Positions 1,518 through 15,500 of a stretch of DNA of 64,000 nucleotides are shown here, piece by piece (within the stretch, counting starts at the first letter, position 1; every line of letters starts with the position of its first letter). A model generated the notes under the pieces. That model was not told the DNA's origin. It did no database searches and saw nothing but the letters and a program-made list of their open reading frames with translations. A program made the translations under genes and the position numbers. The DNA comes from Candidatus Heimdallarchaeota archaeon (lineage in GTDB: Archaea; Asgardarchaeota; Heimdallarchaeia; Hodarchaeales; Hodarchaeaceae), in NCBI GenBank assembly GCA_048881705.1, contig JBHLSH010000001.1, positions 1 through 64,000 of the forward strand, in the 5' to 3' direction.

Positions 1518-2498
1518 GTGGATACACGTCCTATGGTTCTTCTAACTCATAAAATTCCCGAATTGGGTCTAAAAAAACTAAAAACAACCTTGAAAGTAAA
1601 AATTCTCGATCCAAATCAACCCATAGAACCACAATTACGTAATTTTCTTCCTGCGGCAGATTATCTGATATCCCTTCTCTCTGTCCATATTACAAAAGAT
1701 CTACTCGCCAGTGCTCCAAGACTTCGGGGCATAGCCAACTATGCCGTGGGTTATAACAACATTGATATGCGCGCAGCACAAAAGTACGGAATTTCGGTGA
1801 CCAATACTCCAGATGTTTTAACTAACGCAACGGCTGACCTAGTTTGGGGTTTAATTCTTGCTGTTACTCGTCGTATAGTAGAAGGTGATGCTATCTGTCG
1901 AAAGAATGCATTCGCAGGATGGGCGCCTGACTATCTCTTGGGATATGAACTCTCTGGAAGAACCTTAGGTATTATTGGCCTGGGCAGAATTGGCCAAGCA
2001 GTTGCACGTCGTGGAACCTGCTTCGAGATGAATGTCTTATATCACTCAAGGAATCGAAATCCCAAAGTCGAAGATGGTTTGGGGGTGGTTTTTCAACCTA
2101 ATTTGGATGATCTTCTTGGCGGCTCAGATGTAATTAGTCTTCATGTCCCTTATACGCAGGAAACACATCATTTAATCTCTTCACGAGAGTTGGACATTAT
2201 ACGTCCATCGGCTTTTCTTATCAACACATCCAGGGGAAAAGTTGTGGACGAAATAGCCCTTGTTCGGGCATTAAAAGAAAATTCTATTGCAGGAGCAGGG
2301 CTTGATGTGTTTTATGATGAACCTAGAATCCCAGAAGGTCTCCGTGAGTTACCTAATTGTGTGTTGACCCCGCACATTGGTTCAGCAACCATGAAAACTC
2401 GAAATGCAATGGCTAAAATAGTAGCAGATAACATCTTAGCAATGGTACGAGGTGAAGAACCTCCAAATTTGGTCCCCGAATTGAAAACTGAAGAATAA
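1518..2498 (+). CDS. gyaR: D-glycerate dehydrogenase / glyoxylate reductase (D-2-hydroxyacid dehydrogenase family)
   Basis: NYAVGYNNID, TNTPDVLT, Rossmann GLGRIG, INTSRG, AGLDVF..EP, LTPHIGSAT. Confidence 0.85.
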   Translation: MDTRPMVLLTHKIPELGLKKLKTTLKVKILDPNQPIEPQLRNFLPAADYLISLLSVHITKDLLASAPRLRGIANYAVGYNNIDMRAAQKYGISVTNTPDVLTNATADLVWGLILAVTRRIVEGDAICRKNAFAGWAPDYLLGYELSGRTLGIIGLGRIGQAVARRGTCFEMNVLYHSRNRNPKVEDGLGVVFQPNLDDLLGGSDVISLHVPYTQETHHLISSRELDIIRPSAFLINTSRGKVVDEIALVRALKENSIAGAGLDVFYDEPRIPEGLRELPNCVLTPHIGSATMKTRNAMAKIVADNILAMVRGEEPPNLVPELKTEE

Positions 2499-2532
2499 GT
2501 CTTTTGAATAGTCCTAAGGATATCTCATATCA

Positions 2533-3246
2533 ATGGAACATGACTCCGAACTTAATATAATCATTGAAAAGCGCGTTCAATGGATGCTCGAAAAATGGAG
2601 GGAACTAGATAAACCACCTACGCCAACCCTAGACGAGATTTCGTTCTTCCACCACGTCGAGGAGATTGTTAGAAGAGAAGCTGACATCAAAGATGGCGAA
2701 TCGAAAGTCGTTAAATCCCTAGAGCGTCGCAAACGTCAAAGACATAATCAGGGACATCTTATTTACGGTGATACTGTGGTCTTGAAGGTAAAAATCACTG
2801 ATCATTACGGAAAGGATAAAGGAGCCCTGGAATCCGTCGCTTATTTCCAAGTCCTCCCGATTACAGATATAGATACTCCGATCACCCGTATTCTTGAATG
2901 GAGAGTAATGCACCGCCCCTCCTGGGTTATCTGGTTTACTAGTCCTATAGCAAAGGGCCTTAGTTCAAGGACAAAAAGCGAATATATCGTAGCACATACT
3001 TTGACAGAGACAGAAACTCAGGATCAAGATCTACTTCGAAGACTCGGAGCATTTCCGTGCCTTGTGACATCCTATGGAATGGATATTCTTCTAAGCTTTG
3101 AATCATTAGACCAGGGAATTAAAATGGTAGAACAATTTCTCCCAGTAATTATTGAACGGAACTTGTACGGGGACCCAAGATTTTTAGAATATTTGGAAAC
3201 ATACCGAAGGAAACTGATCATACCTTTGCTTACTTTAAAGCCATGA
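2533..3246 (+). CDS. Hypothetical protein (237 aa)
   Basis: Long ORF 34 nt after gyaR on the same strand, globular composition, no recognised motif. Confidence 0.7.
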   Translation: MEHDSELNIIIEKRVQWMLEKWRELDKPPTPTLDEISFFHHVEEIVRREADIKDGESKVVKSLERRKRQRHNQGHLIYGDTVVLKVKITDHYGKDKGALESVAYFQVLPITDIDTPITRILEWRVMHRPSWVIWFTSPIAKGLSSRTKSEYIVAHTLTETETQDQDLLRRLGAFPCLVTSYGMDILLSFESLDQGIKMVEQFLPVIIERNLYGDPRFLEYLETYRRKLIIPLLTLKP

Positions 3247-3268
3247 AAAACCCCTAAAAAAAGAGGGG
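3246..3268 (-). terminator. Candidate terminator between convergent genes
   Basis: CCCCT (3251-3255) pairs with AGGGG (3264-3268). On the minus strand it has a T7 loop and is followed by a T5 run. Confidence 0.3.
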
Positions 3269-3277
3269 GGATACTAG

Positions 3278-4945
3278 CTATTGTACCTTGACCAGATTTC
3301 CCTTACAGTAAGGGCAAGCAGTAATCCCCGTTTGGGACATATTAGTATAGCAACTCGCGCAAATCATCCGTGAGCATTGTTCGCATTCATAACCTGAATC
3401 TGTTGCCGGGTGTTTTTCATTATCCAGTTGACAAAAGAATGTTTTCCGTTCTTTAGGAGCAAATTCAACGGAGGCGGCGGGCTTTTCCACCTTGGCTCCG
3501 CAGTTCTTACAATATCTGCTTCCTGGTTTGAGATCCGCTCCACAACTCTGGCAATTTTTTGCTGATGCAGGCGTGCTAATTTTGGCTACTCCGTAATCCC
3601 GACCATAGAGTTTAGCGCCGCAGTTTTTACAATAAACGTCACCAGGATTGTAACGAAAGTTACAGCGATGGCATTGCCCTTCAGTCGTACGGGTAGGAGT
3701 TGCAGGTGCCGTTGTGGTAGAGGATGTCTCTGTTGAAGCCGTGGAGGCCGCTGCACTAACTTCGGGTGTTTTTTTACCAGTAGAACGCTGAATTATCGCA
3801 ATTATAAGAACAATAACCACAATAAGGCCTATAAACATTAAAATAGGGCTGAAATCGGCCCAGCGCTGACTGGAAGTTATTCCCGTCTCGTAAGAGACAT
3901 CAAAAGTTATATCAACAGCTTCCTCTGGATTTACAAAGGGATCAAGGTAAATGAAAAAGAACCAAGCACCTTCATTGGGTGTAGTGAAGGTACCGCTAAC
4001 GGGGTCAACAACATTTTCTATATGAACGTCCGTGGCGGAAAAATCGGGGGCTCCAACGGCAAGATAATTGACAGTGAAATCTATCGAGACCGGATTAGAT
4101 CCACTGTTATACCATACAAGATACCAGTCCTGGGCATAATCTACGTCAAAAGTTCCAATATCCCCGTCAGAACCAATATATTGTACTTCAGGAATAATAG
4201 TCTCCCAATTGTTCCAGCGGTTCAGGTCGTTTGCGTCAGCGATGAAAAACTCTATTGCTCCACCTGTGACGGTAAAATTGTAACTTAACTCGGAACCGGG
4301 CCGTAGAAAATAACCGATGTACTGATAATCGTGATTTCCTTGTACGACCATATCTTCTTCTGAATAGGATCCGTTCAGGGTTGTTGTAGGAAGAGCCTCG
4401 AAGGGTAGATCCCAAATTGCGAAGGTTACCTGACTCTGGGCCTCGACACGATAGTTTATAGAGCTTCCCGCACCGACATGTTCGCTCTCGTACCAATACT
4501 CGTTATAATAGAGAGTTTGTGTATCTCTATAGGTTACAGTTCCCTCTGTTGAGGCATTGCTAAATGGGAAAGGGATAAAGATAAATGCCGGGAGAATGAT
4601 CAGTAGAACTACTATCGCTAGAACAACCCCCCCACCCCAATAAACTGGGGCACGATACCACGGACGGTATGGATAACCCCACCACCAATTCCAGTACCAC
4701 CATCTACGCCACCAAGGCCGATAGTAGGGGCCCCAATAATGACCTCCATAACGATGATGACGACGATAACCAGACGACCGAGGAGCGCGGGAAACTGTAC
4801 GTCTTGATCCAGTTCTTCCAAAGGGCCGTCCTGAAGATCGAACCCGTCCTACTCGAAAACTCCTTCCGCCGCCGCGGAAACCTCCACCCCGAAAACCACC
4901 CCCGCCAAAGCCACCGCCACGAAACCCGCCACCACCACGAGGCAC
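3278..4945 (-). CDS. Membrane protein: RGG/aromatic low-complexity N-tail, TM, extracellular beta-sandwich domains, TM, two zinc ribbons, C-terminal RING-like finger
   Basis: GTG start. GGGFRGGG repeats, hydrophobic VVLAIVVLLIILPAFIFIPF and ILMFIGLIVVIVLIIAII, zinc ribbons CHRC..CKNCG and CQSC..CKNCG, terminal CQLD..CEQC..CASC..CPYC. Confidence 0.85.
   Translation of the reverse strand: MPRGGGGFRGGGFGGGGFRGGGFRGGGRSFRVGRVRSSGRPFGRTGSRRTVSRAPRSSGYRRHHRYGGHYWGPYYRPWWRRWWYWNWWWGYPYRPWYRAPVYWGGGVVLAIVVLLIILPAFIFIPFPFSNASTEGTVTYRDTQTLYYNEYWYESEHVGAGSSINYRVEAQSQVTFAIWDLPFEALPTTTLNGSYSEEDMVVQGNHDYQYIGYFLRPGSELSYNFTVTGGAIEFFIADANDLNRWNNWETIIPEVQYIGSDGDIGTFDVDYAQDWYLVWYNSGSNPVSIDFTVNYLAVGAPDFSATDVHIENVVDPVSGTFTTPNEGAWFFFIYLDPFVNPEEAVDITFDVSYETGITSSQRWADFSPILMFIGLIVVIVLIIAIIQRSTGKKTPEVSAAASTASTETSSTTTAPATPTRTTEGQCHRCNFRYNPGDVYCKNCGAKLYGRDYGVAKISTPASAKNCQSCGADLKPGSRYCKNCGAKVEKPAASVEFAPKERKTFFCQLDNEKHPATDSGYECEQCSRMICASCYTNMSQTGITACPYCKGNLVKVQ
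4865..4939 (-). repeat. Coding Gly-rich repeat (GGGF/RGG) at the N-terminus of 3278..4945
   Basis: Encodes RGGGGFRGGGFGGGGFRGGGFRGGG; ccacc/ccgcc-rich on the + strand. Confidence 0.85.
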
Positions 4946-4948
4946 TAC

Positions 4949-5929
4949 TTAGGCCTCCTCCGCGCTTTCAGCGCTCATTCTATCTCGGAACACCAGGTCA
5001 CGCGATACGGCCAGCACTAAAAACACAATTGCCAGTACACTCACAATAACTCCTAGGACATCAAACGTGATTTGACTTCCAGGTACACGTAGGGCTCCAA
5101 GGGACATAATGATGAAGAATAGAATCCATTCAATGACGATATTGACCGTGCCAATCATTAACCCTATTGATCCCCAATTCCGACCCGTTTTAACGAGATT
5201 ATAGTCAGCTTGGGCCCAATAATAAACAAGAAAAGCACCGAGTAACCCTAAAACTATGAATATAACACCATATAGAGCCAATCCCAGCCATAGAAGGCCA
5301 AAATCGCCTGTAAATTCCCAATAGCGAATCCAAAACCCACCTCCGCGGGCCTCGAATAGATAATAGGTCGCAGTATAAACCGCGGAGCCTGCAATTGGTG
5401 CCTTTAGGTATCCCACCATACCAACTAGTGGACCAGCAATTCCAAGGAAAAAGTACAAGAATGTAAAAAACGTCGAAAAGGCATAATTAGCGAATCGAGG
5501 ATTACTAACCGCTATTAAACCCCTCTGATCTTCATATTTCTCGGGAAGCATGCCCCAACAATCTGTAATTGTGGCAACTCCAGCAAGCTTGTCCTTATCA
5601 ATGACTGGAATAACTGACACATCGAGATCACGCATTCTCTTGAACGCGGTTTCCACAGGAGTGTCCAAATTAACACTCTCTATCGTATACATAACCTCGG
5701 TGACCTTTGCAGTTTCCGTTGATAGCCCTTCAGCAACAACATTTGTAACAATATCGAAATCAGCAATAATTCCCAATACCTGATCATTATCATCTACAAC
5801 CACAAGATCAGGAATTCCACCTTCTTTCATCTTAGCTGCCGCCTCTTTGATAGAAGCTTGGGCATTGATCACCTCAAATTCATCGTCAATGGTTAAATCA
5901 CGAACTACAGGATTTCTTTTGGATGCCAA
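4949..5929 (-). CDS. CBS-pair domain fused to a four-TM membrane domain
   Basis: Residues ~10-128 form a CBS pair (ASIKEAAAKM..IPDLVVVDD..VLGII; TPVETAFKRM..VIPVID..LAGVAT), followed by 4 hydrophobic helices. The stop lies 3 nt before the GTG of the next gene. Confidence 0.85.
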   Translation of the reverse strand: MASKRNPVVRDLTIDDEFEVINAQASIKEAAAKMKEGGIPDLVVVDDNDQVLGIIADFDIVTNVVAEGLSTETAKVTEVMYTIESVNLDTPVETAFKRMRDLDVSVIPVIDKDKLAGVATITDCWGMLPEKYEDQRGLIAVSNPRFANYAFSTFFTFLYFFLGIAGPLVGMVGYLKAPIAGSAVYTATYYLFEARGGGFWIRYWEFTGDFGLLWLGLALYGVIFIVLGLLGAFLVYYWAQADYNLVKTGRNWGSIGLMIGTVNIVIEWILFFIIMSLGALRVPGSQITFDVLGVIVSVLAIVFLVLAVSRDLVFRDRMSAESAEEA

Positions 5930-6082
5930 TGGAATGACCTTCTCACTTTGATGTTTAATTTAGAATCGTAGAGCGTTCTTATGAATTTTCTAAACTCTCA
6001 TAACGCGATTTCCTTTCAGAATACACGATTTAAAAGTCTAGGCTTGGTGGAATACCTAGGTTCGTATTCAGGTTATCAACTT

Positions 6083-6976
6083 TTAGAGGATGAACAGCCT
6101 CCCCAATCCAACCAATACTAGTCCCATTACAGCTGTAGTCAATTGACGTGTCTTTTCAACATTATTTTGCGTGTCCTTGAATAACAAGATGACGGCAATT
6201 GCAAGAACTAACCCTGTCACAAGTAAAATCACAAGATATACCAGATCCCATTTCATGAAAAGGAGAAATGACGTAGCCAGAATCCATGCCAAAGAATATC
6301 CAATCGAGAGGAGATTGACCGTTGTTAAGATTCCCAAACGGGTTGGGAGTGTTTGTACGCCGTGATTGAGATCTCCTTCAACGTCTCCAAGGTCTTTATG
6401 GATTTCGAAGACCAATGCACTCCAAAAAATTAACACCTCAAGCCAGAGGAAAGCCAGGGAAAAATTCCGAGCTACGGCAACGTACCCAGCCATGGAAGCC
6501 AACGATAAGCTTAGAGCAACGATAATGTTTTTCGCAATGAAGAGCGATTTCAACCATCTTGAATACAATACAGCCAGTATGACAACTGAAATTCCTACCA
6601 AAACCACTTGAAATCCGCCTACGATCCCAATGGTTAAAGCCACAATAGCCTCAATGATCGCTGCTAGCAAGGCAGTTCGAGGTTCTACTAAGCCTTGTGG
6701 CAAGGGACGCCATGGTTTTGAAATCTTGTCAATTTCGAGGTCACGATAATCATTGAACGTATCCATACTCGCAAGCAATAGTACGCCACCAAAGAAACCC
6801 ATAATCATATGTTCAAATGCGGGTAATGCCAGGGTTCCAGCGATCATCCCAAGCACCACTGTCCCTCCAATTATTGCGCCATCGGCTGGGCGGCCCATTA
6901 TCAAGAGATTATATAGCGTAGTAAGTAGTGATCGCAGTCCTTTTTCACCGACTGTATTAAGAAAATCCGTTTTCAT
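6083..6976 (-). CDS. UbiA-family prenyltransferase, digeranylgeranylglyceryl phosphate synthase-like
   Basis: Asp-rich motifs FNDYRDLEIDKISKPWRPLPQG and EIHKDLGDVEGD; about 8 TM helices. Confidence 0.8.
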   Translation of the reverse strand: MKTDFLNTVGEKGLRSLLTTLYNLLIMGRPADGAIIGGTVVLGMIAGTLALPAFEHMIMGFFGGVLLLASMDTFNDYRDLEIDKISKPWRPLPQGLVEPRTALLAAIIEAIVALTIGIVGGFQVVLVGISVVILAVLYSRWLKSLFIAKNIIVALSLSLASMAGYVAVARNFSLAFLWLEVLIFWSALVFEIHKDLGDVEGDLNHGVQTLPTRLGILTTVNLLSIGYSLAWILATSFLLFMKWDLVYLVILLVTGLVLAIAVILLFKDTQNNVEKTRQLTTAVMGLVLVGLGRLFIL

Positions 6977-7096
6977 CTGTTATTGCTCTCAAGAATAATT
7001 ACTACCTGACAAATTGGGAAGATTATTAATTTTGGGATTGATTTGAGTATTTGACCTGAACCTGGTATCCTAGGTTCTAGTTAGGCTACCTTTCCA

Positions 7097-8215
7097 TTAT
7101 ACCACCGAAGTATCCCGAAGGAATTCACCGATGAGATCCAATCCTGTTTCCAGATAATCTTTTTTTGATCCAATTCCGATCCTGATATACTTATCCATGC
7201 CAAAGCAGTCTCCAGCAACAATAAAAACACTTTTCAGTTCACGAAGCTTAGTAACAAGTTCAGTGGAATTAATATCCATGTCATAACGTAAAAAAACCAT
7301 GCCCCCCGCTTGAGGAGGAATGAAGCTGAAATATTTTTGGTGTTTTTCAACCCAATTGGTTAGAATGGCCAAATTATTTTGCAAATAGTTACGATTTCTA
7401 GTTAGAATCCGTTTCCTACGCTCGGGTTGTAAAGCCAAAGCAGCAATTTTGTTACTAAGAATTCCGGTCGAGATGGTTGTGTAGTCGGAGTAAGACCATG
7501 CCCTATCAATAAAGGTCTCAGGGCCGACGAGCCACCCGATTCTTAGACCAGGGAGAGCATAAGATTTCGATACGCCACAGGAGATTATGACCTTTTCATA
7601 TCGACCCCAAAAACTAGGTGTTTCTTTGCCCGATAATTCGGCGCCACGATATATTTCATCCGCATATATCCATGCATTGGTTTTTTTCGCCAAATTAACG
7701 ATTTTCCTCATCGCCTCGTCACTTAGGACTGATCCAGTAGGATTATTCGGATTGCATATCACAATCATTTTCGCATTAGAGTTAATTTTCGTATCTAGCT
7801 CATGGAGATCAGGTTGCCAGTTAAGATCCTCTCTAAGATGGAATGGGACTATTTTAACTCCAAAACTTCTTGCTAGCCCCCATATCTGCATATAATTGGG
7901 AAGCATAAGGATTATTTCGTCATCAGGCTCCAAAAGGCTCCAGACGCCTATGAAATTTGCTTCTGCTGAACCATTTGTCACTAGGACATTGTTTCGATCC
8001 GTACCGGGATAAAGATGACTAATTCTATCCCGTAACTCAATAGATCCATTTGTTTGACCGTAACCTAGACGAACTGAAAGTAATTCGTCTATTTCCTCCT
8101 TTTCTAGTAATTCGGAGAGTGTATAGGGATGGATCCCACTCTCAGTTAGGTTATATTTGACTTTGTTTTCCCAAACCGATTGTTGTCGTTCAAGTTCGAA
8201 AGTCTCAATTTTCAT
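7097..8215 (-). CDS. PLP-dependent aminotransferase class I/II
   Basis: CNPNNPTG, ADEIY, SKSYALPGLRIGW (PLP lysine). Confidence 0.9.
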   Translation of the reverse strand: MKIETFELERQQSVWENKVKYNLTESGIHPYTLSELLEKEEIDELLSVRLGYGQTNGSIELRDRISHLYPGTDRNNVLVTNGSAEANFIGVWSLLEPDDEIILMLPNYMQIWGLARSFGVKIVPFHLREDLNWQPDLHELDTKINSNAKMIVICNPNNPTGSVLSDEAMRKIVNLAKKTNAWIYADEIYRGAELSGKETPSFWGRYEKVIISCGVSKSYALPGLRIGWLVGPETFIDRAWSYSDYTTISTGILSNKIAALALQPERRKRILTRNRNYLQNNLAILTNWVEKHQKYFSFIPPQAGGMVFLRYDMDINSTELVTKLRELKSVFIVAGDCFGMDKYIRIGIGSKKDYLETGLDLIGEFLRDTSVV

Positions 8216-8240
8216 TGGTATCCCTCACAATACTGTCAAG

Positions 8241-9191
8241 TTATAGACTTAATTTTGAGAAAACCGCTTTTGATATTTGTATGTCCTGAATGGCGACTCC
8301 TGTTAAATCGGCGACTGTAATTTCATCATCTGATTGTCTTTGTAAGTCTTTGTTTGTTATCATTGTTCCAAGTTCTATTATATCATTCTTGGTGATGGTT
8401 TTGTTTTTCATTGCTCGATAACATTCCCCGCGTGATTCTGCTTGAAATAAACTGTCCGAAATCACCCGATCTGCCAATCCCAGGATCTCTACATCTAATT
8501 CCTGTTTTTCAGGAGTATCTGATCCTATTGCAGTAATGTGAGTTCCTTTTCGTACTTGATTAGCTTTAATCAAGGGTGTTTTGGAGGGAGTACATGTGAC
8601 AATTAGATTACATGTATTTGTCACATCTTCAGAGCTTAAAGTAGTTTCTATTGCGAAGCCGGATTCCTTCATGTCCTTTATGTATTCATCAAGACTGTTT
8701 TGGCTTCTTCCCCAAACAAGGGCTTCGCGGCAATCTATAACGGTCTTCAAATATCGTAATTGCATTTTACCCTGGATTCCGGTTCCAAAAATGCCGATCC
8801 TATTGACCTTCTTTGGGGCCAGATACTTAGCTACGACTGCACCAGCAGCTGCAGTTCTAACATTGGTCAAATGTCCTTCATCAAGCAATATACATTCGAT
8901 CTGTCCGTTTTTTTGATTAAACAATAAGTTAAGTCCGTTGATAGAAGGCAGACCAATCTTTGGATTTTCATAAAAACCCTGAGCGATTTTAATTACGTAA
9001 TAATCGTCGCCCTTGATGTAGCCATACTTTATATGGCAATCTCCCGGCGGATCTTCGAAAATCAATTCCCCCACTGGCGGCACCACGACCTTTCCCTCTG
9101 AATATGAAATAAATCCTTCTTCGACCAAGGGAACTGGATCGAGGATATCAAGAATTCGATTGATTTCTTCTAAAGCTATGATTTTTACCAT
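8241..9191 (-). CDS. Ornithine cyclodeaminase / mu-crystallin family protein
   Basis: LTNVRTAAAGAV, FGTGIQG, HITAIGSDTP, DLTGVAIQD. Confidence 0.9.
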   Translation of the reverse strand: MVKIIALEEINRILDILDPVPLVEEGFISYSEGKVVVPPVGELIFEDPPGDCHIKYGYIKGDDYYVIKIAQGFYENPKIGLPSINGLNLLFNQKNGQIECILLDEGHLTNVRTAAAGAVVAKYLAPKKVNRIGIFGTGIQGKMQLRYLKTVIDCREALVWGRSQNSLDEYIKDMKESGFAIETTLSSEDVTNTCNLIVTCTPSKTPLIKANQVRKGTHITAIGSDTPEKQELDVEILGLADRVISDSLFQAESRGECYRAMKNKTITKNDIIELGTMITNKDLQRQSDDEITVADLTGVAIQDIQISKAVFSKLSL

Positions 9192-9505
9192 GTGTTAACC
9201 CACCTTTTGGTTTGAATCGTTAAACTAGCCCGATTTAATCGTCATAAAAACAACGACAGCTTTAAGCGGAAAATCTACCTTACATCCGTACCTTAAGACC
9301 TCTTGACCATAATGACGGTCTAATAGAATACGTAATAGATTTTCTAGTGGTAAGGCTAATAAAACAAAATATGATTGATATACTTGCAGTCATCCCTCAC
9401 TCTTTAAAATAAATGGCCCGTTGGCTTTGTGTCTAAACAGCTTTGAGCAATTATGAGAGTAAAAAACCTTCGTTTCTTCCATTATGATAAAAAAACTATA
9501 AACTG

Positions 9506-10708
9506 GTGAAACAAATGCAACAGCGTTTATCATTTCCATTTTCAGCGATTGTTTCATCAGAAAAGCTAAAACTTGCGATCTTGATAAATGCGATAAACCC
9601 CAAAATTGGAGGAGTATTGATCCAAGGTCCAAAAGGTTCAGGAAAAACTACGATAGTAAGGAGTCTAACTGCAATACTGCCAAAAATCAATGTTGTAAAA
9701 GGCTGCCCTTTCAACTGTAATCCGGAAGATCCAACCAAAATGTGCGAGAATTGCACCGAAAAACACCACAACGGCGAAAGTTTCCTTACCGAAGAGAGAG
9801 ATATGAGGGTTGTAGATCTTCCTTTAGGAGCAACTGAGGATAGAGTCATTGGAAGTTTAAATGTCGAAAAAGCTATAAAACACGGAATTGAAGCATTAGA
9901 ACCAGGGATTCTGGCAGAGGCTAATCAAAACATCCTATATGTCGACGAAATAAACTTGTTGCCAGATCATTTGGCTGACGATTTGCTGGATGCTGCCGCA
10001 ACAGGCTGGAATGTAGTAGAACGTGAGGGAATATCAGTACGACATCCTTCATTTTTCATTTTCATTGGTACAATGAATCCGGAAGAAGGGCAATTAAGGC
10101 CCCAACTCCTAGATCGGTTCTCTTTGTCGGTTTCGGTTGAACCAATATTATCTGCAAAGCAAAGAATGGAAGTAGTAAAGAAAAATCTTGACTTCGAGGC
10201 GAATCCTCAACATTTCCTTGGTACTCAAAAAATTGCGCAAGAAGAATTAATTGATCGAATAATGTATGCTAGAAAAATCCTATCCGAGGTAGAAATGCCA
10301 GAGAACCTTTTGGAGGTCGTATGTCGAAGCTGCATAGAATTAGAGGTAGACGGGATGAGACCTGACATTGTGATTAGTAAAGCGGCAGCAACACTCGCGG
10401 CGTTTGAAAAAAGAAGGATAGTTACCCCCGATGATATCGCAATCGCCTCTGAACTCACATTAAGACATAGAACTAGAAAAGGGGGATTTTTAGAACCCGC
10501 TTCCCGAGACGAAATCTCTAAGATATTCATGGCCAAAATCAAGAAACTGAAATACGTGGAAAAGCCAAAACGTGAAACTGAAAACGAAAGTCCGAAGGAA
10601 CAACCGAAAGGGCGGACTGCAATTTGGGCAAAACAGAAACTAACTGAAGAACAAGAAAAAATGGTAAAAAAAAAAAGAGTAGAGGAAGAAGATTCTTTTC
10701 CTTCATGA
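9506..10708 (+). CDS. ChlI/BchI-type AAA+ ATPase (Mg/Co-chelatase ATPase family); N-terminal half of a ChlD-like gene
   Basis: FPFSAIV, Walker [23 protein letters not shown], Walker [27 protein letters not shown], ending in a charged tail. Confidence 0.92.
10666..10676 (+). other. A11 homopolymer, candidate -1 frameshift / slippage site joining the AAA+ and vWA ORFs
   Basis: ATG GTA AAA AAA AAA AGA in frame 0. The -1 frame is open from 10648 and reads AAA AAA AAA AAG AGT AGA GGA straight into 10705..11880. Confidence 0.6.
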
Positions 10709-11880
10709 GACGTCTCGGTCCTGTTTTTGGCTTTGGCAGAAGAATGGGAGAATCTCCAAAAAAAGCTCCAGTAACCGATGGTGTAGTTAAAGGTACAGAA
10801 GATCTGGGTGGGGAGATTTCGGATGCGATTGATTCTGATAAATTACCAGGAATTCCAACAATAAGTAGAGCCGTACGACCTCCTCCAATATCTGAAGGAA
10901 AAAGTCTCATTTCCAGAGTGAGAGAAAGCATTTTATTCCCATTTAAGTTAATTTTCAAAATAAAAACTCCGAGAGGAACCAGTAGCTTTGTGGGAAAAAG
11001 AGTAGAGACCGTTACCACTCTCCATCGAGGTCGGCCTTGGGGATGGAAAATTCCCAAAGACAAACCTTCTGATATCCATTTACCCGCAACAATAAGAACT
11101 GCAGCAAGAAAGCAGAGATTTCGACAATCTTCTTCTGAATTGGCCTTGCAAATTTCTTTGGAGGATGTACGAGAGAAAGTAAGGCGATATAAGGCGCCCA
11201 TGACCTCGATCTTTGTAATTGATCTCAGTGGGTCGATGTTATTCAGTTTAGAAGAAGCAAAAGAGGCATTACTAAGACTCCACAGAGATGCTTATCAATA
11301 TCGAGATAAAGTAGGGATAGTAGCTTTGAAGGAAACATCTGCCGAGGTTGTTCAACATCCCATTACTAATTTGGGAGTCGTTGCAAACAAACTTCTGGGA
11401 TTGGGGATTAGTGGATTTACTCCATTGGCTTCAGGTATGTTGAAGGCATTAGAGGTTTTAAAAGAAGCTAAACGTCGAGATAGGGCAACCATACCAGTAA
11501 TGATTATTATAACTGATGGAAATGCCAATGTTCCACTTCATAGAGGCATAGATGGAAAAAATCGAGATTTCAGTACATTAGGTATAGTATTACGAGAATT
11601 TGAGGACTTGGCGGTTAAGGACACGCTGGAAATATCAAAATTGCTTAAAAAAGAAGGAATTCATACCGTTGTTGTTAATACAAACCAACATCTCTATGGC
11701 CGTGAGACTTACGGCTATACTGTTACGAAATTAATCGCTATGACCACAAATGGAAGTCATCATCAGGTGGATAGACTTGCTGAAGGAAAGGAGCTTGTTG
11801 ATATGATGTTTGCAGGAATCAGTGACGATCAAAAGAGAGTTTCGCATGGCGCTTCGTTGTCTCTACGTAATTTGTTTTGA
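10705..11880 (+). CDS. ChlD-type linker plus von Willebrand factor A domain; C-terminal half of a ChlD-like gene
   Basis: [54 protein letters not shown]; ~100 low-complexity N-terminal residues; ATGA overlap with the upstream ORF. Confidence 0.9.
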
Positions 11881-12070
11881 GGATATAAGCGCCCAAGAAA
11901 TTGAATTTTGAATTACTTCGGAATAGTGATTGAAGCCTCGTTTTCATCGAATTTTTCCTCAAACTTTACAGTTTATCCTTGGATAGATTTTTGCTGAAAC
12001 ACAAAATATAGATAAGGTAGTGGCCAGAAAAGAATTAACAATAGTTAAGGATACCTTGAGATTGTGAGAA

Positions 12071-12853
12071 ATGTCCGAAACACCTTCATTCCCAGCTAAA
12101 AGCGAAAATTACCAGCATCTTTTCCAGTCAATGAGAACAGACCGTTGGTGGGTCGATCCATTACTAAAGGCACTGATTCTGATCATATTCGGCGCGTACA
12201 CAGGGTGGTCAATGTGGATTGGTGTAGATTTCAAATATAATCACTATATCAGCCCTATTTACTCCCCAGAGATCGAAATTGCTGGTTGGCCATTTTCTCC
12301 TGCATTTATTCTTATCTGGGCGCCCTTAGGATTCAGGTTTACCTGTTATTATGCAAGAAGAGTCTATTACCGGATTTTTTTCTTTGACCCTCCGAGTTGT
12401 GCAGTTAATGAGGTACAAGCCATTCGGTATCGATATAAGGGGGAAAATCAAAAATTCCCTTTACCATTTGTTTTAAACAATCTTCACCGTTACTTTCTTT
12501 ACATGGCAATTATTCTAGCTGCCATTCATTGGGTAGATACCATTATAGCATTAAGTTTTGAAGGAGGAATAGGAATAGGTTTAGGATCTGTACTCATTTT
12601 CACAGATGCTTTATTCCTTTCTCTTTATGTTGCATCATGCCATTCATTTCGCCATTTGGTCGGTGGAGGCCTGAACTGCTATTCCTGCTCTAAAGTTCGG
12701 TACGAAGGATGGAGAATAGTAAGTCGGCTAAACAAGTACCACTATGTATTTTTTTGGATGAGTTTGGTTTGGGTAGTAATTGTCGATCTCTACATAAGAT
12801 TGCTAGTACTGGGGATTCTTTCCGATCCATTTATTGTGTTGATCCCTCTTTAA
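12071..12853 (+). CDS. Succinate dehydrogenase membrane anchor, actinobacterial Sdh1 (type F)-like
   Basis: GFRFTCYYARRVYYR, LHRYFLY, SCHSFRHLVGG, LNKYHYVFFW resemble the mycobacterial Sdh1 anchor; first gene of the sdh operon. Confidence 0.75.
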   Translation: MSETPSFPAKSENYQHLFQSMRTDRWWVDPLLKALILIIFGAYTGWSMWIGVDFKYNHYISPIYSPEIEIAGWPFSPAFILIWAPLGFRFTCYYARRVYYRIFFFDPPSCAVNEVQAIRYRYKGENQKFPLPFVLNNLHRYFLYMAIILAAIHWVDTIIALSFEGGIGIGLGSVLIFTDALFLSLYVASCHSFRHLVGGGLNCYSCSKVRYEGWRIVSRLNKYHYVFFWMSLVWVVIVDLYIRLLVLGILSDPFIVLIPL

Positions 12854-12875
12854 CATAAGTCTTGGAGCCTTCATT

Positions 12876-14708
12876 ATGTCTGAAATCAACATAAAAGACG
12901 AACTTGACGATTTAGAGAGATTTCGCCACGATGTCTTAGTTATCGGGGCAGGAGGAGCTGGATTACGAGCTGCAATCGGAGCTGCGGAAAAAAAACTCAG
13001 TGTTGGAGTGATTTGCAAATCATTATTGGGTAAAGCCCATACGGTAATGGCTGAAGGAGGGATTGCAGCTGCGCTCGGAGATGCAGATCCCAACGATAAC
13101 TGGAAGATCCATTTTAGGGATACAATGAGAGGAGGAAAATTGCATAGTGACTGGCGGATGGCAAGACTACATGGTCAACTAGCTCCTGAAAGAGTGAAAG
13201 AGCTTGAAAAATGGGGGGCCGTCTTTGACCGTACAAGAACTGGAAAAATAAGCCAAAGACATTTTGGAGGACATACTTTCCAACGCTTGGCCCATGTTGG
13301 TGACCGAACAGGACTTGAGATCATCAGAACTCTACAAAACAAGGTCATTCACCAGAAGAATGTCAAAATATACATGGAATGTACTGTGACCCAAATAATT
13401 GTCGAGGAAGGAAAAGTTGTAGGCGTGTTTGGTTATAACCGTCAAGATGGAAGGTTAATGTTGTTTGAGGTGGATACAGCAATAATTGCAACAGGAGGGA
13501 TGGGTAAGTGTTATCGAGTAACCTCTAACTCGTGGGAATATACTGGTGATGGTTTTGGACTTGCCTATGACGCGGGCGCAGAACTAGTTGACATGGAATT
13601 TGTACAGTTTCATCCAACAGGTATGCTTTTTCCTTCCAGCGTCGCGGGAATTCTGGTAACTGAAGGAGTCCGAGGAGAGGGGGGTGTTCTTCTCAATAAT
13701 AAAGGGGAGAGATTTATGTTTAACTATATACCTGAGTTTTTCAAGAACGATTATGCTGATACTGAAGAAGAGGCGGAAAGATGGGGCATGGGGGATAATT
13801 CGGCAAGACGACCTCCTGAATTATTAACCAGGGACGTGGTGGCGAGGGCCATTATATCCGAAGTAAAGGCAGGAAGAGGTTCTCCTCATGGAGGCGTTTT
13901 TCTGGACATTGCGTCAAGGAAATCTAGGGAAGAAATCCTAAAAAAACTCCCCTCTATGCATCATCAATTCTTAACTCTAGCCCAATTAGATATTACAAAG
14001 GAACCTATGGAGGTTGGGCCTACTTGCCATTATTTTATGGGGGGTATTAGAGTAGATCCATTTACGCAGGAGACTTCAATTAAGGGATTGTATGCTGCGG
14101 GCGAAGCTTCAAGCGGTTTACATGGTGCAAATAGACTGGGTGGAAATTCTTTATCTGATTTACTTGTCTTCGGGGCGTTAGCAGGAGAAGCTGCGGCAGA
14201 ATATGCATCTTCATTAACCAAGGAGTCCAACGTTTCGGAAACTAGATTGATGGACGCTATTAATCAGGTTTTAATGTATTTCGATCCAAAACGAACTGAG
14301 GACCCATATAGGCTTCATGATGAGCTCAAAGATATAATGGAAGAGCACATTGGAATTGCCCGCAGTGAGGAGAATATTAAGGTCGGAATCAATAAATTAA
14401 AAGAAATATCCACGAAAATAAATAATGTGGGCGTGTTAGAAGGAGGAAGAAAATACAATCCCAACTGGCATTTATGTATTGATCTTCATCATATGTTCAT
14501 TACTAGCATTGCAATTGCAAGAGGGGCTTTAGAGAGGAAAGAAAGTAGGGGCGCACACACAAGAGTTGATTATCCAGAATCCAATCCAGATTTGACAGAT
14601 TTGCTCATTGTACTAAAAAAAGGTGACGATGGAACCCTTGAAGTTACTCATGAAAAATATCCCAAGATCTCTGACGATTTGGAGGAACTAATCGAGCAAG
14701 AGGTTTGA
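12876..14708 (+). CDS. sdhA: Succinate dehydrogenase / fumarate reductase flavoprotein subunit
   Basis: GAGGAG, covalent-FAD motif GKAHTVMAEGG, QFHPTG, TEGVRGEGG, HYFMGG, HGANRLGGNSL, ESRGAH. Confidence 0.95.
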   Translation: MSEINIKDELDDLERFRHDVLVIGAGGAGLRAAIGAAEKKLSVGVICKSLLGKAHTVMAEGGIAAALGDADPNDNWKIHFRDTMRGGKLHSDWRMARLHGQLAPERVKELEKWGAVFDRTRTGKISQRHFGGHTFQRLAHVGDRTGLEIIRTLQNKVIHQKNVKIYMECTVTQIIVEEGKVVGVFGYNRQDGRLMLFEVDTAIIATGGMGKCYRVTSNSWEYTGDGFGLAYDAGAELVDMEFVQFHPTGMLFPSSVAGILVTEGVRGEGGVLLNNKGERFMFNYIPEFFKNDYADTEEEAERWGMGDNSARRPPELLTRDVVARAIISEVKAGRGSPHGGVFLDIASRKSREEILKKLPSMHHQFLTLAQLDITKEPMEVGPTCHYFMGGIRVDPFTQETSIKGLYAAGEASSGLHGANRLGGNSLSDLLVFGALAGEAAAEYASSLTKESNVSETRLMDAINQVLMYFDPKRTEDPYRLHDELKDIMEEHIGIARSEENIKVGINKLKEISTKINNVGVLEGGRKYNPNWHLCIDLHHMFITSIAIARGALERKESRGAHTRVDYPESNPDLTDLLIVLKKGDDGTLEVTHEKYPKISDDLEELIEQEV

Positions 14709-14711
14709 AGT

Positions 14712-15500
14712 TTGCAGAACAAGTCACAATTGCAGAAAGCTACGTTAATCATTCAAAGGGGGGAGAATAAGGAGGTTATCCGTATGGAGGAATTTGATGT
14801 TGACCTTGAACCGGGTTCCGTGGTTCTTGATGCCGTTCATGCTGTTCAGGCATTACATGCCAAAGATCTGGCAGTTCGTTGGAATTGTAAAGCTGGAAAA
14901 TGTGGTTCCTGTTCGGCTGAGATTAATGGACTACCCAAATTAATGTGTATGACTCGGCTTTCAGATTATGACCTAACTGAACCCATTATTGTAAAACCAA
15001 TGGCTACTTTCCCCTTGATTAAGGACCTTGTCACCGATGTCTCTTGGAATTATGAAGTAAATCGAAAAATCACTCCTCTAGCATTTCCAGATATCAAAAA
15101 ACCCCGTGTAATGCAGGAAGATGTTGATAGAATACAGGAATTTCGAAAATGCATCGAATGTTATCTTTGTCAGGATATATGCCATGTTCTTAGAACTCAT
15201 GAGAAATTCGAGGAATTTGTCGGTCCGCGATTTCTTCTTCGTTTGGCGAATTTGGATATGCATCCTCTAGATACCGAAGATAGAGCCGCAGCCGTAAAAA
15301 ACGAGTTTGGCATCGGATATTGTAATATTACAAAGTGTTGTACTGAAGTTTGTCCCGAAAATATCCAAATCACTGATAATGCGATAATTCCTTTAAAGGA
15401 AAGAGTCGCAGATAGGTACTACGATCCTTTAAAGTGGATTTGGCGAAAAATATTCGGATTTAAGAAGGAAAAAAAATTGTTATCAAGGCAAGAAAACTGA
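14712..15500 (+). CDS. sdhB: Succinate dehydrogenase / fumarate reductase iron-sulfur subunit
   Basis: CKAGKCGSC..C, CIECYLCQDIC, CNITKCCTEVCP. Confidence 0.95.
   Translation: MQNKSQLQKATLIIQRGENKEVIRMEEFDVDLEPGSVVLDAVHAVQALHAKDLAVRWNCKAGKCGSCSAEINGLPKLMCMTRLSDYDLTEPIIVKPMATFPLIKDLVTDVSWNYEVNRKITPLAFPDIKKPRVMQEDVDRIQEFRKCIECYLCQDICHVLRTHEKFEEFVGPRFLLRLANLDMHPLDTEDRAAAVKNEFGIGYCNITKCCTEVCPENIQITDNAIIPLKERVADRYYDPLKWIWRKIFGFKKEKKLLSRQEN

Follow-up and report, generated by a model that had tools for sequence, protein, structure and literature searches.

The window analysed here, a stretch of 64,000 nucleotides at the start of contig JBHLSH010000001.1 (assembly GCA_048881705.1) of Candidatus Heimdallarchaeota archaeon, carries on its minus strand, at positions 3278-4945, an open reading frame (ORF) for a protein of 555 aa, labelled P0001, which sequence comparisons place in a single-copy family of two-pass membrane proteins that is specific to Asgard archaea. 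Our preferred explanation is that P0001 acts as a membrane-anchored RING-type adaptor resembling a ubiquitin ligase (E3), which would bring a ubiquitin-conjugating enzyme (E2), or some other part of the ubiquitin system, to the membrane; we put the probability of this reading at about one half.

In the mechanism that we infer, an ancestral core would consist of a cytoplasmic RGG/aromatic tail with the motif PFGRTG, a nested GOLD ectodomain and a cytoplasmic double zinc ribbon placed after the second transmembrane (TM) helix, and it would be produced together, and form a complex, with a protein that has a CBS pair and four TM segments. In the genus of the window this core has gained a C-terminal C4C4-like, cross-brace, two-zinc finger of RING type. 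The GOLD module on the outer side would bind something, the finger on the inner side, presumed to bind zinc, would recruit a charged E2 or another ubiquitin-system component and may have ligase activity, and the tail and zinc ribbons would keep substrates at the membrane. Because the finger is recent and restricted to one genus, ubiquitin signalling cannot have been the ancestral role of the family. P0001 can be read as a combination of known kinds, namely a GOLD receptor and a RING-type finger.

Family distribution and gene model

Of 400 genomes surveyed across the phylum, 154 contain the TM-ectodomain-TM core as a single copy, among them 18 of the 21 genomes of the window's own family as well as 11 of 14 and 96 of 135 genomes in two other families; from the remaining families of that class the core is all but missing. 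All homologues with a source name were Asgard (Heimdall/Hodarchaeales, Loki/Promethearchaeota, and Thor). The ORF is a genuine gene, with more than 100 Asgard homologues at E-values down to 1e-268, and its GTG start is correct, as the orthologues start with MPRGGGG. All segments named in the original prediction, which had been made from the letters of the DNA alone, were recovered: the RGG/aromatic tail, two TM helices, an acidic beta region, a linker, zinc ribbons and a finger. That prediction gave no strand and had no knowledge that most orthologues lack the finger. In a Pfam scan of P0001, DZR was the sole family above its cut-off, with weak hints of APD1-4_N and Prok-RING_4, and NCBIfam gave no match.

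The C-terminal finger

The last segment of P0001 (residues 488-555, window 3281-3484, minus strand) was delimited on its AlphaFold2 (AF2) model, a profile search against PDB and fold matches, and has the ligand pattern C505-x2-D508(-x3-H512)-x12-C521-x2-C524-x4-C529-x2-C532-x11-C544-x2-C547, so that, with seven Cys plus Asp/His, it deviates from the C4C4 type in the first pair; the Cys spacing from C505 to C547 is exactly that written in the original prediction. Paralogues in the same genome carry C-x2-C where the finger of P0001 has C-x2-D, which makes D508 a ligand-equivalent position; H512 is as conserved as D508, and either may be the actual zinc ligand. The consensus of 50 fingers reads FFCQLD-x3-HP-x8-C-x2-C-x-R-x2-C-x2-CY-x10-CP-x-C-x-G-x-L.

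When the finger profile was searched against PDB, the top matches were all RINGs, the best being the RING of cellulose synthase CesA (1WEO, E 0.0013), which has the identical C-x2-C-x4-C-x2-C-x11-C-x2-C in its last six ligands and whose FCEIC aligns to FCQLD. The N-terminal CesA RING (Pfam zf-UDP) and the C4C4 RING of NOT4 share with P0001 the Cys spacing of these six ligands, but the first pair of P0001 is C-x2-D plus a conserved His and not C-x2-C. The RING of CesA serves oligomerisation and has not been established as a ligase.

The AF2 model of the finger, built zinc-free, had a predicted local distance difference test (pLDDT) score of 85, with a core above 90, and showed a helix (model residues 43-51) after several short strands. 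Its fold matches were the archaeal ribosomal protein aS34, Cbl, RNF4, Ring1B, TRAF3, Slx1, ZNRF1, U-box and ZZ domains (Foldseek probability 0.9-1.0; VIA-align Z 4.0-6.2). Assignment to the cross-brace RING/ZZ fold class is therefore well supported at the level of predicted structure, which bears on the question of a cross-brace RING that the original prediction had raised for residues from about 500 to 555. Two independent zinc ribbons, a B-box or a PHD finger were considered too and are not favoured, the model and its matches being RING/ZZ-like and the B-box match having an E-value of 7.4.

Two positions that form canonical E2 contacts are kept, namely a hydrophobic residue (L/I/V/M) two positions after the first ligand (C1+2) and a proline after the seventh (C7), each in 49 of the 50 fingers. 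A complex prediction of the finger with a UbcH5-like E2 encoded on contig C15 of the same genome gave ipSAE values of 0.02 and 0.01, against a mark of 0.32, which weigh neither for nor against binding. In this E2 (L001:1465-1965) the catalytic Cys is present together with the PFQPPKV and WSPA loops, and the HPN motif takes the form HVN; its ORF as annotated has 15 extra N-terminal codons compared with orthologues of 151 aa, and its relatives include E2s of Paramecium and insects.

The finger as a mobile, genus-level addition

In an exhaustive phmmer search, the finger region (about residues 492-555) recurred alone, at 40-66% identity, as the end-piece of proteins 63-1650 aa long that carry CBM96, LVIVD repeats, DUF7664 or Cache, and also in small stand-alone proteins. 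Genomes hold 4-15 copies, and in the genome of the window 14 matches were found in about 11 ORFs, membrane-bound as well as soluble. Judging from these sequence matches, the finger behaves as a common cytoplasmic end-piece of receptor-like proteins. Receptor-like dCache proteins of Hodarchaeales (P0101-P0103 and a 546-aa ORF at G065:C1:1735065-1735247) have nothing but the finger in common with P0001, at 48-50% identity along some 90 aa.

At E ≤ 1e-12 this type of finger was present in all 21 genomes of the window's genus and in none of the other 378 from the phylum. Relaxing the threshold to E ≤ 1e-6 brought in a single further genome, G078 of a sister family; no ubiquitin genes were visible on the contig of its finger ORF, which is only 7.6 kb long. 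Within the P0001 family, the finger is carried by 27 of the 99 full-length members, which are those of 549-569 aa, and its distribution indicates that it is a late, genus-restricted addition to the family.

Link to the ubiquitin operon

The original prediction had noted that Asgard archaea encode ubiquitin machinery, and such machinery is present in the genome of the window, where other contigs hold four genes for E2-like and three for ubiquitin-like proteins and where a ubiquitin-activating enzyme (E1) is encoded as well. On one of its contigs (C72), a protein of 588 aa with a PCI domain and two fingers, the second of which has the complete C4C4 pattern, is clustered with a ThiF E1, a ubiquitin-like gene and an E2, and the cluster adjoins ESCRT-II-like and SPFH genes. 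The finger paralogue of this cluster, too, had no match in NCBIfam. The same cluster, plus a JAB/MPN protease, was found in a complete genome (G067). The clusters span positions 1755-11393 of locus L022 (own contig, C72:9000-20622) and 6938-15173 of locus L027 (G067), their PCI/two-finger proteins being 585-588 aa long; in L022 the ThiF E1 lies at 6022-7251 and the ubiquitin-like gene at 7348-7653, and the double-finger protein of the operon is labelled P0249. The ESCRT-II-like gene is of the EAP30/Vps36 kind, and the side-by-side position of PCI and JAB recalls their pairing in the COP9 signalosome (CSN) and the proteasome lid.

An operon with the same gene set in Caldiarchaeum is biochemically active, and its small RING protein (srfp) is an active E3 (PMC5654768), in which the C1+2 residue I30 is essential, the exchange I30Q abolishing activity (PMC5654768). 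By analogy, the finger family occupies the E3 slot of the Ub-E1-E2-JAB operon, and this is the strongest, though a contextual, argument for linking the finger of P0001 to ubiquitin. The finger of P0001 resembles srfp of Caldiarchaeum subterraneum (PMC5654768) as a small, two-zinc, RING-like domain in an archaeon with ubiquitin, E1, E2 and JAB, with a paralogue in the same operon slot and a conserved hydrophobic residue at C1+2, but it differs in forming part of a large membrane protein whose gene lies apart from the operon and in the variable helix position equivalent to a Trp. The role in ubiquitin-like signalling that the original prediction had put forward thus gains a paralogous finger in a ubiquitin operon, but it is not ancestral to the family, the finger being confined to one genus.

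The GOLD ectodomain

The region between the two TM helices (residues 129-362, window 3860-4561, minus strand) was modelled with AF2 as part of residues 100-400, using an alignment of 59 sequences. The model had a mean pLDDT of 93 and runs from one helix through about 17 strands to another helix, with an all-beta domain in which, by fold alignment, an outer sandwich (about residues 130-186 and 301-353) surrounds an insert (about residues 187-300, window 4046-4387, minus strand). In VIA-align the insert matched p24beta1 (5azw_B) with Z 12.6 and a root mean square deviation (rmsd) of 1.6 Å over 88 aa, followed by TMED1 (7rrm, Z 12.0-12.2), p24gamma2 (5gu5, Z 12.1), SPF/SEC14L (1o6u, Z 11.8) and ACBD3 (Z 9.0); the scores of the p24, TMED and SEC14L GOLD domains exceed the general jelly-roll background of Z 8-10. 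The outer sandwich is made of four strands before and four after the insert, and on its own it aligns to PliG (Z 9.8, rmsd 2.4 Å, 90 aa). Since the insert and the flanking strands align separately to GOLD and to PliG, one sandwich appears to be nested in another, and the central part of the ectodomain is, according to the predicted structure, a GOLD beta-sandwich, probably serving as a protein- or ligand-binding module. Birnavirus VP2 proteins were the top Foldseek matches of the ectodomain (E about 5e-6), but at TM-scores of 0.23 and rmsd of 15-17 Å kinship was rejected and the matches were taken only as a hint of nested jelly-rolls.

The fold also raises the possibility of a p24/TMED-like receptor for cargo or envelope assembly, in which the GOLD domain would oligomerise or bind surface proteins, the cytoplasmic parts would serve localisation or turnover, and the CBS partner would couple the receptor to energy status. 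It would fit with this that p24 GOLD domains are the top fold matches and that the family is single-copy, conserved in a housekeeping-like manner and fingerless in most lineages, while Pfam EMP24_GP25L (PF01105) matches 3 of the 59 ectodomains, with a best E-value of 8.5e-4. The likeness to p24/TMED cargo receptors (5azw, 5gu5, 7rrm) covers the GOLD fold (Z 12.0-12.6, rmsd 1.6-2.2 Å, 88-95 aa) and its non-cytoplasmic side, but the p24 architecture of signal peptide, coiled coil, single TM helix and short COPI/COPII-binding tail is absent, and in P0001 the GOLD domain is inserted in a second sandwich, held by two TM helices and accompanied by long cytoplasmic tails, with only marginal similarity to EMP24_GP25L. 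Moreover, the neighbourhood holds no vesicle-coat genes and a GOLD fold alone is no indicator of function, so that we consider a p24-like role unlikely.

The only Pfam family that recurs among the ectodomains is APD1-4_N (PF16040), the N-terminal non-cytoplasmic (luminal) domain of the eukaryotic APD membrane RING ligases. It matches 34 of the 59 ectodomains at E ≤ 0.1, lies at residues 203-230 of P0001 and exceeds its cut-off of 27 bits in three orthologues (P0326, 29.1 bits; P0328, 30.5 bits; P0350, 29.4 bits). APD1-4_M (PF16041) had no match on P0001 even at E ≤ 10 and is missing from the list of 25 families that the set of 59 ectodomains gave. A profile search with the ectodomain alignment gave 135 matches, of which the 120 listed were all family members; those with a source name were all Asgard, with no eukaryotic APD among them.

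In Arabidopsis, APD1-4 are membrane RING E3 ligases (Luo et al. 2012, as cited in PMC6118397). Like P0001, the APD family combines a beta-rich, non-cytoplasmic domain covered by the APD1-4_N model with TM anchoring and a C-terminal cytoplasmic finger of RING type. P0001 differs in that it stays below the Pfam cut-off that some orthologues pass, lacks an APD1-4_M match and has a C4C4-type finger with Asp/His in the first pair that was gained in one genus only, whereas APD proteins are without the RGG tail, the double zinc ribbon and the CBS partner. In the P0001 family the RING was not inherited along with the luminal domain and, because the finger was added only in one genus, the common overall architecture is at least partly convergent.

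An E3-like role versus a docking module

Several observations weigh against an E3-like role of P0001. The finger is missing from 72 of the 99 family members, which shows that the family functions without it, and no ubiquitin or E2 gene was found near the P0001 gene. No RING model of Pfam exceeded its cut-off on P0001 (Prok-RING_4, 11.6 bits vs. 27), and those matching family members were all sub-threshold (zf-RING_4, best E 0.0017; zf-C3HC4_3, best E 0.035). With E about 1e-3 and Z 4-6, the PDB and fold scores of the finger are all modest and of the size that small zinc domains often give, and RING E3s score no better than ZZ domains and aS34, neither of which is known as a ligase. In the first zinc site Asp/His takes the place of Cys, and both the helix position (C6+4) and the linchpin position vary among fingers. 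On the side of the ectodomain, APD1-4_N reaches 17.6 bits on P0001 itself, compared with the cut-off of 27, and the APD link consists of one short Pfam model.

Part of these observations would also be expected if the finger were a non-catalytic RING/ZZ docking module that recruits no E2 and tethers diverse proteins to a shared cytoplasmic partner, e.g., a PCI/JAB complex or a cytoskeletal or ESCRT component, in which case P0001 would be a receptor or scaffold rather than a ligase. The ZZ domains that score like RINGs (Nbr1, Z 5.5; p62; CBP/p300) and the variable E2-contact positions in the linchpin and helix are in line with such a module, as are the range of partners, which besides CBM96, LVIVD, DUF7664 and Cache includes WD40 and TPR-like proteins and stand-alone forms of 63-110 aa, and the PCI scaffold domain of the operon paralogue. 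The sequence profile, however, prefers true RING E3s, the C1+2 hydrophobic residue and the C-P-x-C proline that are kept in nearly all fingers are typical of E2-binding RINGs, and the operon position equals that of the active archaeal E3 srfp (PMC5654768). A docking module is for these reasons held to be a tentative alternative, less probable than an E3-like adaptor.

The RGG/aromatic tail and membrane topology

The N-terminal tail of P0001 starts with RGG/GGF repeats (residues 1-50, window 4796-4945, minus strand; 42% Gly, 24% Arg, 12% Phe, four RGG and four GGF, net charge +12), which include the invariant S-G-R-P-F-G-R-T-G at residues 38-46, and continues as a juxtamembrane stretch rich in Trp, Tyr, Arg, Pro and His that carries RPWY motifs (residues 51-105, window 4631-4795, minus strand; 20% Trp, 18% Arg, 18% Tyr, net charge +10), both segments being delimited by composition and conservation. 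An RGG-rich N-terminus with the motif P[F/Y]GRTG was found in all 99 full-length family members, from Hodarchaeales, Loki and Thor, and the motif RP[WY] in 97 of them. In the tail alignment, little or no variation is seen at Arg3, at several Gly and Phe, in S-G-R-P-F-G-R-T-G and in the RPWY motifs. From this alignment the tail is a conserved element rather than a disposable low-complexity appendage. A signal peptide at this place was ruled out by the length of 105 aa, the net charge of +22 and the conservation throughout the family, and the tail thus withstood the two objections raised in the original prediction, i.e., absence from orthologues and cleavage.

Two hydrophobic segments were found at about residues 98-132 and 361-392 (Kyte-Doolittle), coinciding with AF2 helices at residues 101-120 (model 2-21) and 358-390 (model 259-291), and on both grounds TM helix 1 was placed at residues 106-128 (window 4562-4630, minus strand) and TM helix 2 at residues 363-386 (window 3788-3859, minus strand). 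The 234 aa between them have a net charge of -30 and contain three of the four N-x-S/T sequons of P0001, and basic residues follow TM helix 2, which together with the +22 of the tail and the -30 of the beta domain fits the positive-inside rule. The charge distribution and the AF2 helices flanking the beta domain make a two-pass topology with both termini in the cytoplasm most likely, in agreement with the original prediction.

RGG repeats are classical RNA-binding, condensate-forming elements, and P0001 could accordingly be a membrane tether for RNA or ribosomes, in which the tail and the ribbons would bind RNA, an aS34-like finger would contact the small ribosomal subunit, and translation or RNA granules would be localised at the membrane. 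Besides the repeats, this would agree with the best fold match of the finger, aS34 of the 30S subunit (9fhl chain a; Foldseek E 9e-3, TM-score 0.60; VIA-align Z 6.2; 29% identity, in a range of 25-29%), a stand-alone archaeal protein of the same size, and with weak sequence matches to the zinc-ribbon ribosomal proteins bL32 and eL43. But aS34 is a ribosomal component, its alignment with the finger has an rmsd of 7.6-7.7 Å, and the sequence relationship is not significant (E 0.18-0.3). It is a two-zinc, RING-E3-like 30S protein, only RING-like itself, that is confined to Thermoprotei (PMC11698992). The invariant PFGRTG suggests a specific protein contact over generic RNA binding, and no conserved RNA-related neighbour was seen at the loci compared, for which reasons we regard an RNA or ribosome tether as very unlikely. 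An RGG/aromatic tail with an invariant short motif throughout the family is also uncommon for archaea, and through it a prokaryotic RGG domain becomes open to testing.

The linker and the double zinc ribbon

Behind TM helix 2 follows a presumably cytoplasmic linker (residues 387-423, window 3677-3787, minus strand), defined by composition (65% Thr/Ser/Ala), whose length and sequence vary among orthologues. The double zinc ribbon (residues 424-487, window 3485-3676, minus strand) has four C-x2-C pairs arranged as two C-x2-C-x10-C-x2-C units (Cys 425/428/439/442 and 465/468/479/482) and is matched by Pfam DZR (PF12773) at residues 425-483 (E 6.2e-8, 33.1 bits vs. a cut-off of 27.3). In 20 of 20 aligned family members all eight Cys are invariant and DZR matches.

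The upstream CBS/four-TM gene

Upstream of P0001, at window 4949-5929 on the minus strand, lies a gene of 326 aa that encodes a CBS pair (Pfam CBS, E 4.2e-15) followed by four hydrophobic segments. The junction (window 4943-4965, minus strand) reads GGAGGAGG-cc-TAA-gta-GTG, with the stop codon TAA 3 nt before the GTG of P0001. A Shine-Dalgarno-like GGAGG lies inside the 3' end of the CBS gene, and this run together with the 3-nt gap suggests translational coupling. A CBS gene was directly upstream, at a distance of 1-5 nt, in all four loci compared (the window and those of P0009, P0039, and P0097), which represent three lineages; the CBS proteins outside the window have 327-330 aa and come from a complete genome of the Heimdall group, a genome of the Loki group and a metagenome contig of Promethearchaeota. 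Since the pair is conserved and apparently translationally coupled, a complex is argued for, and the P0001 core probably works in one with the CBS protein.

Wider reading

To our knowledge, membrane-anchored RING ligases and GOLD receptors are regarded as inventions of the eukaryotic endomembrane system. The Asgard family places a GOLD/APD-like domain outside the membrane and, in a lineage close to eukaryotes, has it fused to a finger of the type found in a ubiquitin operon. If the finger does recruit an E2, P0001 would be the first transmembrane E3 known from a prokaryote and would offer a tractable system for asking how ubiquitin signalling came to be coupled to membranes. The constructs and partners for biochemical work are defined (the finger, four E2s, E1, the ubiquitin-like protein and the CBS/four-TM protein).

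A broader combination of ideas, which we hold to be rather improbable as a whole, would make the family an archaeal forerunner of the eukaryotic GOLD/APD membrane ubiquitin ligases and, jointly, part of a network of ubiquitylation receptors and a CBS-gated RGG condensing platform. The finger would in this case have spread onto Cache, CBM, beta-propeller and GOLD receptors of the Hodarchaeales genus, giving transmembrane ubiquitylation signalling, and the tail would serve as a platform, tethered to the membrane, that condenses RNA or protein and is gated by the nucleotide sensor of the CBS protein.

Archaeal ubiquitin operons with small RING proteins have been published (PMC5654768, PMC9192718) and GOLD domains are on record from other archaeal settings (PMC10936438). 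The isolation of Hodarchaeales strains in culture has been reported (bioRxiv 10.1101/2025.02.26.640444). In the literature on Asgard or Hodarchaeales and GOLD, RGG or RING, we found no description of the family, of the RGG tail or of an Asgard transmembrane RING-like protein. The original prediction did not recognise the architecture from any described family, but the ectodomain turned out to have the known GOLD fold with APD1-4_N matches.

Further family-like genes

One genome (G041) was the sole one among the 31 of its family to hold a full-length core gene (E 2e-116); its contamination is 8%, and the gene is put down to contamination or lateral transfer. Family-like ectodomains were also found joined to an N-terminal TPR array (P0099, 875 aa) or to WD40 repeats (P0100, 651 aa), which could either be true fusions or stem from gene calls that were mis-joined on short contigs. 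More distant ectodomain paralogues (21-28% identity) occur in tandem arrays of 2-4 copies (contigs of P0131 and P0169); they are without the RGG tail and the CBS neighbour, but have a short aromatic/basic juxtamembrane motif and keep the double zinc ribbon.

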